Shown here in pieces: positions 5,572 through 50,119 of a stretch of DNA of 64,000 bases. The stretch spans positions 3,808,001 through 3,872,000 of the forward strand of contig OZ220089.1 in NCBI GenBank assembly GCA_964291625.2, given 5' to 3'. This DNA comes from Candidatus Latescibacterota bacterium. GTDB lineage: Bacteria > Latescibacterota > UBA2968 > UBA8231. The position numbers were made by a program, and so were the translations under genes. Under the pieces are notes generated by a model, which had not been told where the DNA came from, did not search any database, and worked only from the letters and a program-made list of their open reading frames with translations. Every line of letters starts with the position of its first letter. Positions within the stretch are counted from its first letter, which is position 1.

Positions 5572-8273
5572 CCTTCGTTCTCTCGTCTGCGGACGGTGTC
5601 GATCCCGGCCGCATGGGAGGCAAGGCGGCGGCCCTCTCCCAGCTGGCCGGCACGGGGGTGAGGATCCCCGCCTGGTTCGTGATCACGCCGGGCGCTTTCG
5701 AAGCCAGTCTCTCGACGGCCCAGCGCCGCGCCCTGCTCCGGGCGGAAGGACAGGCAGATCTCGAGGGGTTCTTCGACCGGGTCTCGCCGGCCCCCCAGGT
5801 CCTGAAGGAAGTAGAGGAAGGCTTCGCAACGCTGGGCGATACCCGCCTGGTCGCGGTGCGCTCGTCCGGTGTACAGGAGGATGGAGTCGAGCACTCCTTT
5901 GCCGGCCAGTTCGAGAGCTATCTGTCGGTAACCCGCAAACGCCTGCCGGCCCGGATCACCGACGTATGGCGATCCGGTTTCAGCGAACGCCTCCTCGCCT
6001 ACCGCCGGGAGAACGACCTCGAAGGGCTGCCCCAGGCTCCGGCCGTGCTGGTGCAGGTGATGGTCGACAGCGAGACCGCCGGAGTCGCCTTCAGCGCCGA
6101 CCCGGTGACGGGCCGCCGCTCGGTGGCGGTGGTGTCGACACTCTACGGTCTGGGAACGGCGCTGGTCGGCGGGGACGCCGACGCCGACACCTATCGCGTC
6201 CATTTCGATGGAACGATCCTCGAGCGGGAGATTGCAGCGAAGAGCCTGGCGCACCGGCCGGCCCCGGACAGTCCCGAAGGGTTCGCGGCGCAGGAGATCG
6301 CGGAACCCGCTGCCTCCCAGCCGGCGCTTACCGACGGGGAGGCCGCGCGCATCGCCGGGCTCGCCCGCCGCTCCGAGCGCCACTTCGGGCGGCCCCAGGA
6401 CATCGAATGGGCGATGCGCGGCGGCGAGATCTTCCTCCTCCAGTCGCGGCCGATCACCGCCCTGGCCGCGAGGCCCGACCCCGACGGGGTCCGCACCATC
6501 TGGGACAACTCGAACATCGTCGAGAGCTACAGCGGGATCACCACCCCCCTGACCTTCAGCTTCGCCCTTCACGCCTACGATGGGGTCTACCGCGAGTTCT
6601 GCCGCCTCCTGGGCGTGACCGGGGGCAGGATCGCGGCCAACGATCTCACCTTCCGCCGCATGCTCGGACTGGTGCGCGGCCGCGTCTACTACAACCTCCT
6701 CAACTGGTACCGCGTCATCGCCCTGCTCCCCGGTTACAGCTTCAACCGCCGCTTCATGGAACAGATGATGGGGGTGCGCGAGAGTCTTCCCGACGAGATC
6801 ACCGCTTCCGCATCCGGCGCTTCCCGGCCGGAGCGTGTTCTCGATCTGCTCAGGCTGGGCCGCACCGTGGCGGGCCTGGTCGTCAACCACGTGCGCCTGC
6901 CCGCCATGACCGCCAGGTTCGAAGAGCGGCTGGATCGGGCGCTCGCTCCTCGGGATCCACCCCTGGAGGCGATGCGGCTCGACCAGCTGGCCGCCGACTA
7001 TCGTGCCCTCGAGTCGAATCTTCTGACGCGCTGGGACGCGCCGTTGATCAACGACTTCTTCGCCATGGTCTTCTTCGGCGTTCTGGGCCGCCTCACGGCG
7101 AGGTGGTGCGGCGGCGGGAAGGATGAGCCGGGCTCTCTGCACAACGATCTGGTGTGCGGCCAGGGGGGCATGATCAGTGCCGAGCCCGCCAGGCGCATCG
7201 TCGAGATGGCCGCCGTCGCAGCGCCCCATGCCGACCTGACCGAGGTCCTCCGCCAGGGGGCGGCCGCGGCGGCCGAGCAGGACTTGCGGCGGCACGAGGA
7301 GCTGGCACGACTCTACGACGACTATCTCGCCACCTTCGGCGATCGCTGCCTCGAAGAGCTCAAGCTCGAGTCGACCACTCTCCTCGACGATCCCGAGCCG
7401 CTGCTGCGCTCGATCGGGCACGCCGCGGCCCGACTCGCGCGCGGTCAGACCTTCGATACCGGTCATCAGTCGGCCGTGCGGCAGGCGGCGGAAGAGAGGG
7501 TGGGGCGGGCCCTTGCGCGGCGCCCCTTGCGGCGCGCCGTCTTTGCGTGGGTATTGGGCAACGCCCGCCAGCGGGTGCGGGACCGGGAGAATCTGCGGTT
7601 CGAGCGCACCCGCATCTTCGGCCGCGCGCGCAGGATCTTCCTCGAGGTCGGGCGCAGACTGTTTGCCGAGGGGGTCCTCGACGATCCCCGTGACGTCTTC
7701 TACCTCGAGCGCGAGGAAATCCTGGCGTACGTCGAAGGGGCCTCGCCGTGTGACGATCTGCGTGGTCTCGCCAGCGTGCGCCGCCGCGCCTTCGAGCGCT
7801 ACGCGGAGCACGAGGCTCCGGCCAACCGCTTCGAGACCTTCGGCGCCCCCTACATCGCCAACAGCTGCGCCGGCAGCGACCCGGGGACGGGAGAGCAGGG
7901 TGAAGCCGGGGGAGAAGACGTGCTCCTCGGCCTCGGTTGTTGCCCGGGTCTCGTGCGGGGCCGGGCGCGGGTGATCCGCGACCCCCGCGGGGCGGAACTA
8001 CAGCAAGGGGAGATCCTGGTGGCGGAGCGCACCGACCCGGGATGGATCATGCTCTTCCCGGCCGCCGCCGGCATTCTGGTCGAGCGCGGCAGCCTGCTCT
8101 CCCACTCGGCGATCGTGTCCAGAGAGATGGGCATTCCCGCCATCGTCGCCATCGCCGGCCTCACCACCCGAGTCAGGAGCGGTTGCTGGATCGAGATGGA
8201 CGGCGCGCGCGGCAGGGTGAGCCTGAACCCGCCGCAACCCGAAGCCGCCCCGGAGCAGGGAACCTGCCCATGA
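5568..8273 (+). CDS. PEP-utilising phosphotransferase with PPDK_N ATP-grasp, central domain and C-terminal mobile His domain (RPH/PigC-type architecture)
   Basis: GGKAAAL, VAVRSSG..EDG..HSFAGQFES, PQDIEWA, LLQSRPIT; C-terminal ERTDPGW...ERGSLLSHSAIVSREMGIPA. ATGA overlap with the upstream gene. Confidence 0.88.
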   Translation: MTFVLSSADGVDPGRMGGKAAALSQLAGTGVRIPAWFVITPGAFEASLSTAQRRALLRAEGQADLEGFFDRVSPAPQVLKEVEEGFATLGDTRLVAVRSSGVQEDGVEHSFAGQFESYLSVTRKRLPARITDVWRSGFSERLLAYRRENDLEGLPQAPAVLVQVMVDSETAGVAFSADPVTGRRSVAVVSTLYGLGTALVGGDADADTYRVHFDGTILEREIAAKSLAHRPAPDSPEGFAAQEIAEPAASQPALTDGEAARIAGLARRSERHFGRPQDIEWAMRGGEIFLLQSRPITALAARPDPDGVRTIWDNSNIVESYSGITTPLTFSFALHAYDGVYREFCRLLGVTGGRIAANDLTFRRMLGLVRGRVYYNLLNWYRVIALLPGYSFNRRFMEQMMGVRESLPDEITASASGASRPERVLDLLRLGRTVAGLVVNHVRLPAMTARFEERLDRALAPRDPPLEAMRLDQLAADYRALESNLLTRWDAPLINDFFAMVFFGVLGRLTARWCGGGKDEPGSLHNDLVCGQGGMISAEPARRIVEMAAVAAPHADLTEVLRQGAAAAAEQDLRRHEELARLYDDYLATFGDRCLEELKLESTTLLDDPEPLLRSIGHAAARLARGQTFDTGHQSAVRQAAEERVGRALARRPLRRAVFAWVLGNARQRVRDRENLRFERTRIFGRARRIFLEVGRRLFAEGVLDDPRDVFYLEREEILAYVEGASPCDDLRGLASVRRRAFERYAEHEAPANRFETFGAPYIANSCAGSDPGTGEQGEAGGEDVLLGLGCCPGLVRGRARVIRDPRGAELQQGEILVAERTDPGWIMLFPAAAGILVERGSLLSHSAIVSREMGIPAIVAIAGLTTRVRSGCWIEMDGARGRVSLNPPQPEAAPEQGTCP

Positions 8274-17313: not shown

Positions 17314-18744
17314 TCACCAGCGGAATTCTGAAGGGTTGCTTACCAGCTCGGACAGGAACTGCCATGTTTGAGGCGCGAGCAGGTATCCGGAGTTTTTCGC
17401 CTGCCATGCGAGCAGTTCCGAGCTCACACCGAACCGCGAACGGAGTGACCGAGCGGCGTACCCTTCGTTGCCTTCATGTTCCGAGACCACCTGTCCGGCG
17501 ATCTGGCGGGGCAACAGCAACTCGGCAGCGAAGGCGCGAGCCCGCTGCTCGACGTGCCTGGCGGTCCTGCCGCCGAGCACGTCAACGAGCGGCAATGAAC
17601 TCGAGCGATCGACCAGGAGGTGACAGATCTCGTGCGCCAGCGTCGCTCTCCTTCGGGCTGAGCTCGCGTGTCGGGCGTCCGAGTTCAGCAGCACGGCTGG
17701 ACCGTGACTCGGTCCCCAGCATCCGATAGCGTCGATGTCCCCAAGCCCGAGGCCTGCGTCCATGAGCGGCACACTCCACGGCGCAAGGATCTGCTCTGGA
17801 TCGACGCGTCCACCGGGGTGAACGATCTCCGGCTGTCCCCGCAGCCAACCGGCCAGCGTGTATCCCTGCATGAACGGCCGCTCGTCATGCGTGTCAGCAA
17901 GCACCGTCAGCGCGTCTTGGGAGGCTCGGTCCAGCTCTGACTTGTCGGACAACGGTACGCGCCTCAGGGCCTCAAGGATCGGTTTCAGAGTAGTCCGCGG
18001 CTGCGGTCCGACCAGTCGCGCCGCGGCCAGTAGTTCATCGGAGCGGGGAGTGGTCCAGTCACGCTCATCCTCGGAGTAGAAGATCGACTCGACCTCGGCC
18101 ACAAGCTCCGGGGTATACCCGGTGGCAGCCTCGATGACCTTCAGCCGGCTGTGGCTGTCTCGTGCATGCCACGACCGGACCGCCTCGCGCGACCGGGCGT
18201 CGGACACGCCATTCAACCTCGACGCAATGCAGTCCCCTACTTTGCGCAAGACATCGAGTAGCTCGTGGAACGGGGCCTTCGCCGTCGCTGTCGTCGAGGC
18301 CGCCCAACCGGTGTTGCCGTCTCGCACGATCCACAGCGGCGGCATTGCTGCTCCCTGCACGGCTTCTGCCAGATCATGGGTCATGCGGTATGCCTCAAGC
18401 TGCTCACCCTCACGCCCGAGGTCAGACCCCAGAGGTGAACCCGACTCGACTGCCATCTCGGAGGCTGCGACCATCCGCGGGACGGTGTCCAGGGCGACGC
18501 CGAGGGGAGCCCCGTCTTCGATGGCCAGGTACAGCCAGGACTCTGCCAGAAACTCCAGAAGCTCGATCCACGTCCACTCGAAGCCCGAGGCCGCGTCCGG
18601 ACCGTGCCAGATCGCCTTGCCTCGCAGGCTCACCCTGAGGCTTCCTCTGGTCGCGTTGGTCGCTGAAGTCCTCGGGCCTCCGGCCAGCCAGTCCAGCGAG
18701 ATCTCGATGTCGCCATCGGATGACCGTGCTACCAGTTCATCCAT
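17314..18744 (-). CDS. ImmA/IrrE-like (Peptidase M78) metallopeptidase with long novel N-terminal domain (module A)
   Basis: RRRATLAHEICH (HExxH), EQRARAFAAELLLP, LRSRFGVS; RBS GGAGG before ATG 18744; overlaps the upstream small gene by 16 nt. Confidence 0.85.
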   Translation of the reverse strand: MDELVARSSDGDIEISLDWLAGGPRTSATNATRGSLRVSLRGKAIWHGPDAASGFEWTWIELLEFLAESWLYLAIEDGAPLGVALDTVPRMVAASEMAVESGSPLGSDLGREGEQLEAYRMTHDLAEAVQGAAMPPLWIVRDGNTGWAASTTATAKAPFHELLDVLRKVGDCIASRLNGVSDARSREAVRSWHARDSHSRLKVIEAATGYTPELVAEVESIFYSEDERDWTTPRSDELLAAARLVGPQPRTTLKPILEALRRVPLSDKSELDRASQDALTVLADTHDERPFMQGYTLAGWLRGQPEIVHPGGRVDPEQILAPWSVPLMDAGLGLGDIDAIGCWGPSHGPAVLLNSDARHASSARRRATLAHEICHLLVDRSSSLPLVDVLGGRTARHVEQRARAFAAELLLPRQIAGQVVSEHEGNEGYAARSLRSRFGVSSELLAWQAKNSGYLLAPQTWQFLSELVSNPSEFRW

Positions 18745-19118
18745 CGCCGCACCTCCCTCTCGCATCCCTGCTGAATGGCCCGTTGCAGCAGCTCCTGCTT
18801 GATCGCCCTCGCGTTACGAGTGCGCGGGAATCCCGCAGGGTGCTCGGGGAAACCATGGTACGAGGCTCCTGGGTTGGTCGGCGCAGCACGATAGACGACA
18901 CCGTCTCGGACCGCGTACAGCCGCTGAGGGTATGGCCGGCTCCAGCGGGGAGGATAGTAGGGAACCGCATCGTCAAGAAGCGCCTGCGCGTCGGACAGGT
19001 TCAACGTCGCGGGACACTTGCCGACAAGGCTCGGCCCGACTTCGACGAACCCGGCATGGTCCTTGTTCCAGTGGTGCTTGCGCTTGGGTTTCTCATCCGG
19101 TTCGTAGAGCCACGGCAT
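18729..19118 (-). CDS. Small hypothetical protein, putative toxin/effector of module A
   Basis: RBS GGGGAG; MPWLYEPDEKPKRKHHW..GKCP..AQALLDDAV..YPQRLYAVRDGVVY..SYHGFP; motif order shared with 46888-47310. Confidence 0.72.
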   Translation of the reverse strand: MPWLYEPDEKPKRKHHWNKDHAGFVEVGPSLVGKCPATLNLSDAQALLDDAVPYYPPRWSRPYPQRLYAVRDGVVYRAAPTNPGASYHGFPEHPAGFPRTRNARAIKQELLQRAIQQGCEREVRRWMNW

Positions 19119-46433: not shown

Positions 46434-46814
46434 ATGAAGATCCGCGGCACCGATTTCGTCTACTACCAGACCGGGGACATCGACCGGTCCATCGCCTTCT
46501 ACCGGGACACCCTCGGCCTCGAGCTGGAGGGCTACTACGAGCAGATGCGCTGGGCCGAGTTCGACGCCGGCAACACGACCCTGGTCCTCAACGACCCGTC
46601 GATCCTGGGCGTCGGCATCGAGCCCCGGCCCGGGGGAGGGGCGGCCGCCCTGGCCGTGGAGGACCTGGCCGCCGCCATGGAGGAGCTGGAGGGCAAGGAC
46701 GTGACCGTCGTCTTCCCGGCCCAGGAGAGCCCCATCTGCCATCTCTCCTGCATCGAGGACCCCGACGGCAACCACGTCTGGCTCCACCAGCGCAAGGACG
46801 GCACCTTCGGCTGA
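46434..46814 (+). CDS. VOC/glyoxalase family protein
   Basis: DRSIAFYRDTLGL, WAEFDAG, AVEDL, IEDPDGN. Confidence 0.9.
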   Translation: MKIRGTDFVYYQTGDIDRSIAFYRDTLGLELEGYYEQMRWAEFDAGNTTLVLNDPSILGVGIEPRPGGGAAALAVEDLAAAMEELEGKDVTVVFPAQESPICHLSCIEDPDGNHVWLHQRKDGTFG

Positions 46815-46887
46815 TCGCGGGGTATACCCACAGGATCTGACTACTGGCACCGCCCGTCTAACCTGTAGCGTATATTGGAGGACCCAA

Positions 46888-47310
46888 ATGGCGAGGAACC
46901 GTCCCCGTCCTCAACTCACCGATGACGAGCTTAGGACATTGGCCTCAAGAGCTCGCTATGAGGGAAGTGCCGAGCACAAGGTGGAGCGCTGGTGGGGAGG
47001 GCTTCCCGAGGGGAGTCAGATGCCCGGAGGGGGGACAGGAAGGCCCTGGAAGCAGAGCACCTCGATCTGTCCCCTCGTTGACCTCGCCGGAAAGAGGCGG
47101 GCTACAAGGATGCTCCGGAAGGCCATCACCAATGGTCAGTTCGAGTTTCTCGAGAGAGATAGAGACTTCCCCTCAAGGGTCTGGTACGAGGATAGGGAGG
47201 GCACACTCTGGAGTGGAAGTTGCTTCAACGGAGAGAGCGGAGAGTACAAGGGATGGCCCCTGACGCCTTCGGAGAAGCAGGACTTCAAGAAAAAGAAGAA
47301 GATCCCATGA
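46888..47310 (+). CDS. Small hypothetical protein, putative toxin/effector of module B
   Basis: RBS GGAGG; RYEGSAEHK..SICP..ATRMLRKAI..FPSRVWY..GEYKGWP; ATGA overlap with the downstream gene. Confidence 0.8.
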   Translation: MARNRPRPQLTDDELRTLASRARYEGSAEHKVERWWGGLPEGSQMPGGGTGRPWKQSTSICPLVDLAGKRRATRMLRKAITNGQFEFLERDRDFPSRVWYEDREGTLWSGSCFNGESGEYKGWPLTPSEKQDFKKKKKIP

Positions 47311-48554
47311 GGTTCGAGAGGGAGTGGATCGATTCCGGCCCCAACAAGTCGGAAGAGGAATCGGCCACTCTCTGCTATCTCCAGATCTGGCTTGGGAACA
47401 ACAACACCTGCAGGTTCCTCGATGCAAGGGAGAAGGCAGCCCATGAGTGGCTGCTCATGCCAGCTGTCAACCTTGCCGAAGGCCTGGCGATGGATTGGTG
47501 GAGCATCTTCGGGAAGAGGGACTACGAGCACCGCCTGCTGCTTCACAGACGTGGCTACCTGGTTCCCGATCTTGTTCTTGAATTCGATGGAACCCGATTC
47601 AGGATCTCCAGCAGGGGAGGATCCTGGCCGGAGGAAGTGCATTTCCATCCATGTGATCCGGCGTTCCTTTCCGAAGAAGAGCTCAGATCGACGGTTGGCG
47701 GCTTCATCGAAGACGTCGTGTCCCGTCTTCGGGGAAGGGGTATAGAGGACTGCACAACGGTATCCAGGTGGAGCAGAATACAGGAGTCTCTCGGAGACCC
47801 GGGAGAAACTCTCTTCTGCGAAGCTGCCGGAGCCCTTGAGCTTGACCCCTACTTCATGTCGGAGGCTGATGAGCGATTCATCGAAGGCATGGTCGAGCTC
47901 TTTCGCGACAGGGAATCGTTGGTCGAATTCCTTTCGGGCGTATCGGAGTACTCTTCGAATCGAAGACGGATCAAGGACTGGATGGACCAGATGGATGCCC
48001 GGTCCAGGGAAGAGTCAGAGCTGCCCGGTCTTCCAGGAATCGCTGAACAAGTGAGGGACCACCTGGGGAGTCGTGCAGATCGACCTTGGGCCATCGGATA
48101 TCGTGCGGCCAAGAAGTTCCGTGACCTCTTCCCGGGATCCTGGGTCCCCTCTTTCCGGGACTTGTCCACTTGCTTGGGAGCCCCCGAGTTCGCGGCCGTA
48201 GACTCGGACCCTCTTCCTGGCATCTTCGCCATGGGCTCTGCCGGAGAGGGTTCCCCCCGGGTCCACTTGCGCAAGCGGACCTCTCAGGAGGACCAGAACT
48301 TCGACTTTGCCAGAGCAGTGGGCTACGTAACCTGCTTCCCTGACTCTTCAAGATTCGTGGTCAACAACCTGCATCGATCGAGCCGGCAGGCCGTTACTCG
48401 AGCCTTTGCCGCGGAGTTGCTGGCCCCGGGAGAGATCGTCTCGGACATGCACGAGGAAGGCCATGACACCTACCTCATTGCCGATCGTCTCGGGGTTCCG
48501 ACCCAGGTTGTACAGCACCAGTTGGAGAACAGGCGCCGGATAGCTGCCGCTTAG
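47307..48554 (+). CDS. ImmA/IrrE-like protein lacking HExxH (module B)
   Basis: Colinear with 17314-18744 (RPWAIGY..A, TRAFAAELLAP, IADRLGV..V.HQLEN) but FDFARAVGY replaces TLAHEICH. Confidence 0.8.
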   Translation: MRFEREWIDSGPNKSEEESATLCYLQIWLGNNNTCRFLDAREKAAHEWLLMPAVNLAEGLAMDWWSIFGKRDYEHRLLLHRRGYLVPDLVLEFDGTRFRISSRGGSWPEEVHFHPCDPAFLSEEELRSTVGGFIEDVVSRLRGRGIEDCTTVSRWSRIQESLGDPGETLFCEAAGALELDPYFMSEADERFIEGMVELFRDRESLVEFLSGVSEYSSNRRRIKDWMDQMDARSREESELPGLPGIAEQVRDHLGSRADRPWAIGYRAAKKFRDLFPGSWVPSFRDLSTCLGAPEFAAVDSDPLPGIFAMGSAGEGSPRVHLRKRTSQEDQNFDFARAVGYVTCFPDSSRFVVNNLHRSSRQAVTRAFAAELLAPGEIVSDMHEEGHDTYLIADRLGVPTQVVQHQLENRRRIAAA

Positions 48555-48681
48555 TTCGAGACCGCTCCACTTGGTGCGGCTGCAAGCGCCTATGGCGATC
48601 TCGCAGTAGCTCTCGCAGACCCCGACCCCGACGCCGACGCTGTTTCACCCCCAGGCTCTCGCCCTCCAGGCGGGTACTGCG

Positions 48682-49995
<1,314 letters not shown>

Positions 49996-50092
49996 GGAAG
50001 CAGCTCCTGGCTGGGTGGGGGAGAATCGGCGAGGGGAGCCCCCGCCGCGCACCGAAGCTAGGCCTTCCATCTCATTGCACAAATCGATACTT

Positions 50093-50119
50093 TCTATGTA
50101 AACCATAGACATATTCTAT
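50093..50119. promoter_or_regulatory. LysR-type T-N11-A boxes in the divergent ino1/LysR promoter
   Basis: TCTATG-TAAAC-CATAGA and overlapping ATAG-ACATATT-CTAT palindromes in an AT-rich patch. Confidence 0.65.

Follow-up and report, generated by a model that had tools for sequence, protein, structure and literature searches.

A low-GC cassette in a Latescibacterota genome carries one copy of a widespread, mobile and unnamed two-gene module that is most likely a toxin–antitoxin system with a dead protease, retained to bind or to sense rather than to cut. The cassette lies in the window, the 64,000-nucleotide stretch of a Candidatus Latescibacterota genome (hereafter G000) that was analysed, and consists of two intact plus-strand open reading frames, 46888-47310 (a small protein of 140 aa) and 47307-48554 (a large protein of 415 aa), overlapping in an ATGA that reads TTGA in the relative G007. 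It is flanked by a glyoxalase/VOC gene (46434-46814) and by ino1 on the minus strand (48682-50112). This pair is referred to as module B; the window also holds a homologous pair, module A. Nine relatives of the same genus are numbered G001-G009, and L numbers denote individual loci. The features of the window are as follows.

46871-46881, plus strand: TATATT (46871-46876), a -10-like word conserved in G007, directly followed by GGAGG; candidate only
46888-47310, plus strand: small gene, encoding a basic 140-aa protein with a BECR-like fold, putative RNase toxin
47307-47741, plus strand: N-domain of the large protein (about aa 1-145), sPC4L/Whirly-like fold, acidic, putative toxin-binding domain
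47742-48062, plus strand: middle helical region of the large protein (about aa 146-252), acidic, with a conserved CEAAGALxLDPY
48063-48554, plus strand: C-part of the large protein (aa 253-415), catalytically dead IrrE/ImmA (M78) domain and HTH (373-415)
48564-48663, minus strand: methylase remnant, about 100 bp, the 3' end of an N6/N4 DNA methylase gene
17314-19118, minus strand: module A, homologous pair, peptidase motif intact
18729-19118, minus strand: small gene of module A, KH...YHGFP
17314-18744, minus strand: large gene of module A, HEICH...E399

The cassette stands out by its composition: its GC content, 58.7% against 69.9% for the window, makes it the stretch of lowest GC there, and of 624 sliding windows of 1667 bp no more than 3 are as low. 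GC3 is 0.68-0.70 in its genes compared with 0.94 in ino1. The initial annotation had described a lower-GC cassette of 1.7 kb between the VOC gene and ino1, with ATGA coupling and an intact large reading frame, all of which holds. It had also credited the cassette with its own -10-like TATATT and a GGAGG ribosome-binding site, and this stands in part: TATATT is real and conserved in G007, but it has no -35 partner (0 sigma-70 -35/-10 pairs found at the cassette, 0.2 expected) and abuts GGAGG. With a -10 word ending right before GGAGG, the transcript would begin in or after GGAGG, so that the promoter and ribosome-binding readings cannot both be literal.

The C-terminal part of the large protein has the fold of a metallopeptidase. 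Pfam Peptidase_M78 matches residues 316-406 at E 1.3e-8 (and 67 of 105 family rows at E<=0.1), and in the predicted model of the large protein, which falls into three parts (pLDDT 94.5), residues 253-415 align with CapP (7T5T; Z 12.5, rmsd 3.1, 147 aligned), PprI (8SLN; Z 9.6, rmsd 3.1, 139 aligned) and the M. tuberculosis regulator 6D2S/6CYJ, with a C-terminal HTH (Z 8.4, rmsd 3.7, 144 aligned for 6D2S). All four metal-binding and catalytic positions are nonetheless lost (His to R336, Glu to A337, His to Y340 and Glu to Q361), and an active M78 metallopeptidase is rejected, HExxH and the downstream Glu both being absent. The profile alignment places the HEICH of module A on R336-A-V-G-Y340 of module B, confirming the replacement of HExxH by RAVGY that had been noted at the outset; the downstream Glu, likewise noted as missing, is indeed gone, but its register has been corrected, the third zinc ligand E399 of module A pairing with Q361 (an E-to-Q change) and not with R360.

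This loss extends across the family. HExxH occupies the site in 0 of 120 rows of the close set (the window protein together with 119 homologues out of the best 120 listed; 198 were found), where the consensus is R-A-[VI]-G-D and R336, G339, N353 and Q361 are invariant (120/120). It is equally absent, at 0 of 79 motif sites, from a distant set of 80 metagenome loci with identities down to 24%, whose 64 full-length members carry R336 in 64/64 and Q361 in 61/64. Nor has the active site moved to the HEEGH at residues 382-386, ahead of the HTH: this word is a chance occurrence, since HExxH-like words occur anywhere in the protein in only 8 of the 120 rows. Judged from these alignments, which have neither zinc ligands nor catalytic Glu throughout the family, the IrrE-like domain of the B clade cannot cut peptides. 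The first zinc His is always replaced by Arg, which suggests that the old active-site pocket may still bind something anionic.

Substitution rates indicate that the dead domain is kept under purifying selection. Between G000 and G007, dN/dS is 0.14 (CI 0.08-0.23) for the dead domain (aa 253-415), 0.19 for the large gene and 0.13 for the small gene, and the last 165 codons of the large gene give 0.04-0.27 in six other pairs, two of the pairwise values being saturated. In a tree of 85 rows, quick and midpoint-rooted, so that the direction of change is taken from the wider M78 family and not from a root, 30 A-type rows separate from 55 dead rows with an SH-aLRT of 100. Simple decay of a protease gene, the reading against which the initial annotation had set a survey of HExxH retention and dN/dS, could draw on a broken copy in G007 (internal TAG) and on a rearranged locus, L032; it is excluded by the fixed substitutions together with the low dN/dS (no HExxH in either set, loss in 120/120 and 64/64 rows), and with invariant replacement residues and all 55 dead rows in one clade it keeps next to no probability.

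Modules A and B had been taken for diverged variants of one system, and homology in both genes bears this out. BLAST yields a weak alignment of 51 residues between the two large proteins, and family profiles align them end to end over 379 columns with a probability of 99.4%. Profiles of the small proteins agree at 95.7% (E 1e-8, 122 rows against 6, three of the A-side rows being partial near-copies of A), while a shallower comparison of 13 rows with one sequence gave 1.2%. A-type large homologues retain HExxH and Glu in 107/107 full-length rows (of 120 listed), and the earlier view that proteolysis is dispensable thus applies to the B clade only. The large protein of module A also matches RmrA models (E 1e-11). 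Altogether, G000 carries four modules as diverged copies, namely A, B and two more of the dead type:

C2:1004277-1006147, minus strand: dead-type module, small protein with last-strand His (YHGY)
C1:1588503-1590364, minus strand: dead-type module, small protein with last-strand His (YHGY)

Two loci of G007 (L135, L095) hold a module A small gene interrupted by a stop in the query frame and a dead-type large gene with an internal TAG. On a plasmid of Azospirillum ramasamyi (L142:3792-5984), an active A-type large protein follows a different protein of 262 aa, GNAT-like by eye, the gene of which is possibly a second toxin swap.

The small protein is probably a BECR-fold RNase toxin, as its predicted fold and its motifs suggest. 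It belongs to a family of 322 clusters at 50% identity, with conserved YxGSxEHK, C61, P95, W99 and YKG[WY]P, for which Pfam gave no shared family over 122 rows. Its predicted model (pLDDT 92.9) has a helix at 66-81 and strands at 97-101, 107-114 and 119-124, and 11 of its 16 top structural chains are toxin-immunity or toxin-antitoxin entries. The toxin chains that it matches are those of YxiD, CdiA-CTs, MafB2, colicin D, BrnT and MqsR, most of which we take to be BECR RNases. The best match, YxiD, reaches Z 5.4 (rmsd 3.0, 86 aligned) where a clear match needs about 8; a second structural comparison with 999 chains gave a best Z of 4.4, Foldseek found no match at E<=0.001, and a sequence search of the PDB found none. 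In the ESM Atlas only unnamed clusters stand at 0.9 or above, the nearest named family, Ntox50/DUF6972, being a lead only at 0.78-0.79. Conserved His and Lys residues are present (H30 in 121/122 rows, K31 in 120/122), and position 121 in the last strand is Lys in 109/122 rows and His in 13/122, as it is in module A. With the last-strand His mostly Lys in B-type rows, nuclease activity of the B small protein is less sure.

The N-terminal part of the large protein is a putative toxin-binding domain. Residues 1-137 resemble the CdiI immunity protein 5FFP (Z 7.5, rmsd 3.3, 113 aligned) and CdiI 4NTQ_B (Z 6.3, rmsd 4.9, 111 aligned), as well as the nucleic-acid-binding Whirly and MRP proteins (Z 5.6-5.7). 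The sPC4L fold takes in CdiI immunity and Whirly/MRP proteins alike and serves both toxin binding and nucleic-acid binding, according to the available portion of PMC9424270; given this common fold, the N-domain could be a sensor instead. Net charges run from +8 in the small protein to -6 in the N-domain (median over 95 rows) and -13 in the middle region. Foldseek gave no match for the large-protein model at E<=0.001, and neither of the window's B proteins has a match in PADLOC or NCBIfam.

The two genes travel together. Of the metagenome loci, 67 extend 300 nt or more upstream and 13 fall short of that; in 65 of the 67 the small gene lies directly upstream of the dead-type large gene, the exceptions being the rearranged L032 and a TumE locus, L041. 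Pairwise distances of the small and large proteins correlate (rho 0.84 over 48 pairs, the best of 500 permutations giving 0.17), which is co-inheritance, not co-adaptation. A predicted complex of the two proteins scores 0.44 against 0.02 for the best control and supports an interaction weakly: its runs gave 0.79, 0.00 and 0.44, with a contact agreement of at least 37% and a partner pLDDT of at least 62. Among solved pairs, 116 of 157 attain the mark for such scores, as do 2 of 215 mismatched ones, but the passing pairs at 0.60 or under comprise only 18 of the solved and both of the mismatched.

At two loci the toxin appears to have been exchanged, which is the most telling result on the partnership. 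In L140 (Rhizobium etli pRetIE4771b) and L041, TumE stands upstream of a large protein with an N-terminal wHTH extension:

L140:6132-8095: TumE, then wHTH fused to the dead IrrE-like protein
L041:3833-5762: TumE, then wHTH fused to the dead IrrE-like protein

TumE is a validated translation toxin in the available text of PMC10584680. The N-domains of the two loci score 27 and 4 bits, compared with 89-141 in 10 held-out canonical members, while their C-parts score 123 and 117 bits, within the 95-148 of the same members. A diverged N-domain beside a canonical dead domain would mean that the N-domain tracks the toxin and that the job of the dead domain is toxin-independent, on the thin basis of two related loci. 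The antitoxin part is thus more likely the CdiI-like N-domain than the dead peptidase; of the first proposal, a binding antitoxin or sensor in the IrrE-like protein as such, the antitoxin role would shift to the N-domain. A further locus, L036, looks like the TumE/wHTH subfamily and is cut by the end of its contig.

The module is patchily distributed and mobile. Besides G000, B-type genes occur in 5 of 40 relative genomes. A comparison of the VOC–ino1 site across the nine same-genus genomes (G008 not assigned) shows module B with an N6/N4 methylase and a putative restriction enzyme, inferred and with no Pfam match, in G007, the methylase and putative restriction enzyme without B in G004 and G006, an unrelated gene of about 500 aa in G001, G005 and G009, and an empty site in G002 and G003, the last being the state that an empty-site check proposed at the outset had looked for. 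The methylase gene is intact in G004, G006 and G007 alongside the putative restriction enzyme, and G000 has therefore probably lost the pair. At the same hotspot of G006, a low-GC HEPN-domain gene (L127:2736-3584) replaces most of the VOC gene. Cassette dS between G000 and G007 (L133) is 0.46-0.62, two to three times the 0.19 of ino1, which suggests that the cassette was replaced, or was acquired independently at one and the same site. Target-site duplications and terminal repeats at the cassette did not exceed chance expectation.

Three plasmids carry a B-type module. In Agrobacterium pAt2 the pair is flanked by an nSTAND3-containing gene and an Mrr-like nuclease gene, beside repABC, and on Tistrella mobilis pTM2 it lies between housekeeping operons, the small gene upstream of WP_014752866.1 (L138, about 6590-7000) being absent from the gene table of the record. 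Named carriers include a Latescibacterota genome, Alphaproteobacteria, Gammaproteobacteria and Chloroflexi; a single-protein query against genome contigs returned one locus. In 40 metagenome neighbourhoods (a scan of 40 of the 80 loci and 166 of 170 predicted ORFs that had no control set, so that defence-island enrichment is not claimed), seven have toxin–antitoxin or restriction-type neighbours, six have integrases or transposases, and most are housekeeping. Viral contigs gave only one match of 45 residues and phage genomes none to the small protein, and there is thus no sign of phage carriage in those collections. A role in phage defence is plausible. The coupled two-gene operon and the patchy, mobile distribution (65/67 loci, empty sites, plasmids) are those looked for in a toxin–antitoxin system.

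With moderate confidence, we read the module as a type II-like toxin–antitoxin system neutralised by the N-domain, with the pseudo-protease–HTH part retained for ligand sensing or regulation. The upstream gene would encode a BECR-fold RNase toxin, and the acidic, CdiI-like sPC4L N-domain, perhaps together with the acidic middle helices, would bind and block this basic protein. The dead IrrE-like domain would bind a ligand in its old active-site pocket, where the invariant Arg stands for the first zinc His, and ligand binding would control the release of the toxin or, together with the HTH, how the operon is expressed. Phage infection or DNA stress may conceivably be the trigger. On this reading, the corresponding domain of module A is still a protease. 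A bolder version of this scheme, which we regard as doubtful, makes the module a widespread family, so far undescribed, that acts against phages or in stress suicide. An RNase of the polymorphic-toxin type would, with its immunity domain, have become an intracellular switch with an active-protease form (A) and a pseudo-protease receptor form (B); the Arg that replaces zinc would bind a nucleotide, a nucleic-acid end or a phage peptide, and the sensor would be portable, having been re-attached to TumE.

Other divisions of labour between the two proteins are conceivable. The dead peptidase domain might act as a substrate trap that binds the toxin, which the active A form would cleave, leaving the N-domain as a nucleic-acid sensor; the pocket residues are invariant, the fold of the N-domain includes the ssDNA- and RNA-binding Whirly and MRP proteins, and ImmA-domain proteins are the antitoxins in RosmerTA as far as described in the available part of PMC10440598. 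The TumE loci, where the dead domain remains canonical while the N-domain diverges, and the acidity of the N-domain, unlike that of a nucleic-acid binder, make this unlikely. The roles might also be reversed, as in PD-lambda-2, with a large protein that acts as toxic effector under the restraint of its small upstream partner. The available portion of PMC9519451 provides the precedent, a toxin-like gene and a peptidase fusion of the same polarity, and both the weak RNase fold match of the small protein and its mostly Lys last-strand position would fit. However, the large protein has no catalytic site to be toxic with, its N-domain resembles immunity proteins, and two loci pair it with a validated toxin family, TumE, and this arrangement is quite improbable.

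An equally modest probability, on a par with that of the substrate trap, attaches to a two-part stress regulator, made of a non-proteolytic IrrE-fold/HTH regulator and a small RNA-binding or RNA-processing partner. Such a regulator would account for the fold match to 6D2S, for the C-terminal HTH and for the mostly housekeeping neighbourhoods, but no fixed target gene lies beside the module, and its sporadic spread, diverged copies, plasmids and toxin swapping fit toxin–antitoxin modules better. The preferred reading remains a toxin–antitoxin system neutralised by the N-domain.

ImmA/IrrE domains in defence and toxin–antitoxin systems are assumed to act by cutting a repressor. A selected dead clade beside its active sister, often in the same genome, provides a natural experiment on non-cutting roles such as ligand sensing and toxin release, and the module supplies an unnamed candidate family of RNase toxins together with a fusion of immunity domain and sensor. 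The cultured carrier Tistrella mobilis pTM2 opens it to experiment.

No description of the module was found in the open-licence PMC and bioRxiv literature, the available portions of PMC5512222 and 10.64898/2026.10.19.760177 containing nothing on it. The accessible parts of PMC2701414 and PMC10440598 describe ImmA/IrrE proteins that neighbour toxins and have both an Xre HTH and an intact motif. RosmerTA (RmrT and RmrA) and the COG2856-Xre antitoxins beside RelE or PIN toxins likewise join a toxin and an ImmA/IrrE (M78) protein in two genes (PMC10440598, PMC2701414, in the portions available). Module B, in contrast, has a CdiI-like domain and a helical region in place of the N-terminal Xre HTH, its peptidase is dead throughout the clade, its small-protein family is not in Pfam, and its proteins have no match in PADLOC. 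PD-lambda-2 also places a small BECR-type (HigB-like) gene upstream of an ImmA/IrrE peptidase fusion, but comprises three genes with an Xre–peptidase fusion and a toxic peptidase protein, as the available text of PMC9519451 has it, whereas module B has two genes and a dead domain. Membership of either system is thus rejected, the N-domain being beta-rich and sPC4L-like instead of an Xre HTH and the peptidase being dead.

CapP and IrrE/PprI share the peptidase and HTH fold with module B, which, however, is without zinc ligands, a GAF domain, the conserved main ssDNA arginines or a separate HTH repressor gene. The main ssDNA site of PprI consists of R85, R207 and R267 in the portion of PMC10904395 at hand; the position of R85 is D329 here and S/T/A/G in the family, and the protein ends after the HTH. 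Residue conservation thus gives no support to ssDNA sensing of the PprI type.

The signature of BECR-Tox2-like RNases, an N-terminal KH together with a His where the last strand begins (available text of bioRxiv 10.64898/2026.08.28.747851), is shown by module A small proteins; B-type small proteins depart from it with EHK and, mostly, a last-strand Lys. No peptidase partner is named in the main text of that preprint, so far as available, and its supplementary family tables may list the small family. CDI pairs with sPC4L immunity proteins (4NTQ, 5FFP) offer a likeness on both sides, the N-domain resembling CdiI and the small protein resembling CdiA-CT/YxiD tips, but the B pair is stand-alone and intracellular, has no delivery domain, and carries its immunity-like domain fused to a pseudo-peptidase. 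With TumE–TumA, finally, as given in the accessible part of PMC10584680, the link consists of the two loci that couple TumE to a wHTH-extended version of the large protein, whereas the canonical module pairs a large protein free of that extension with a different small protein.
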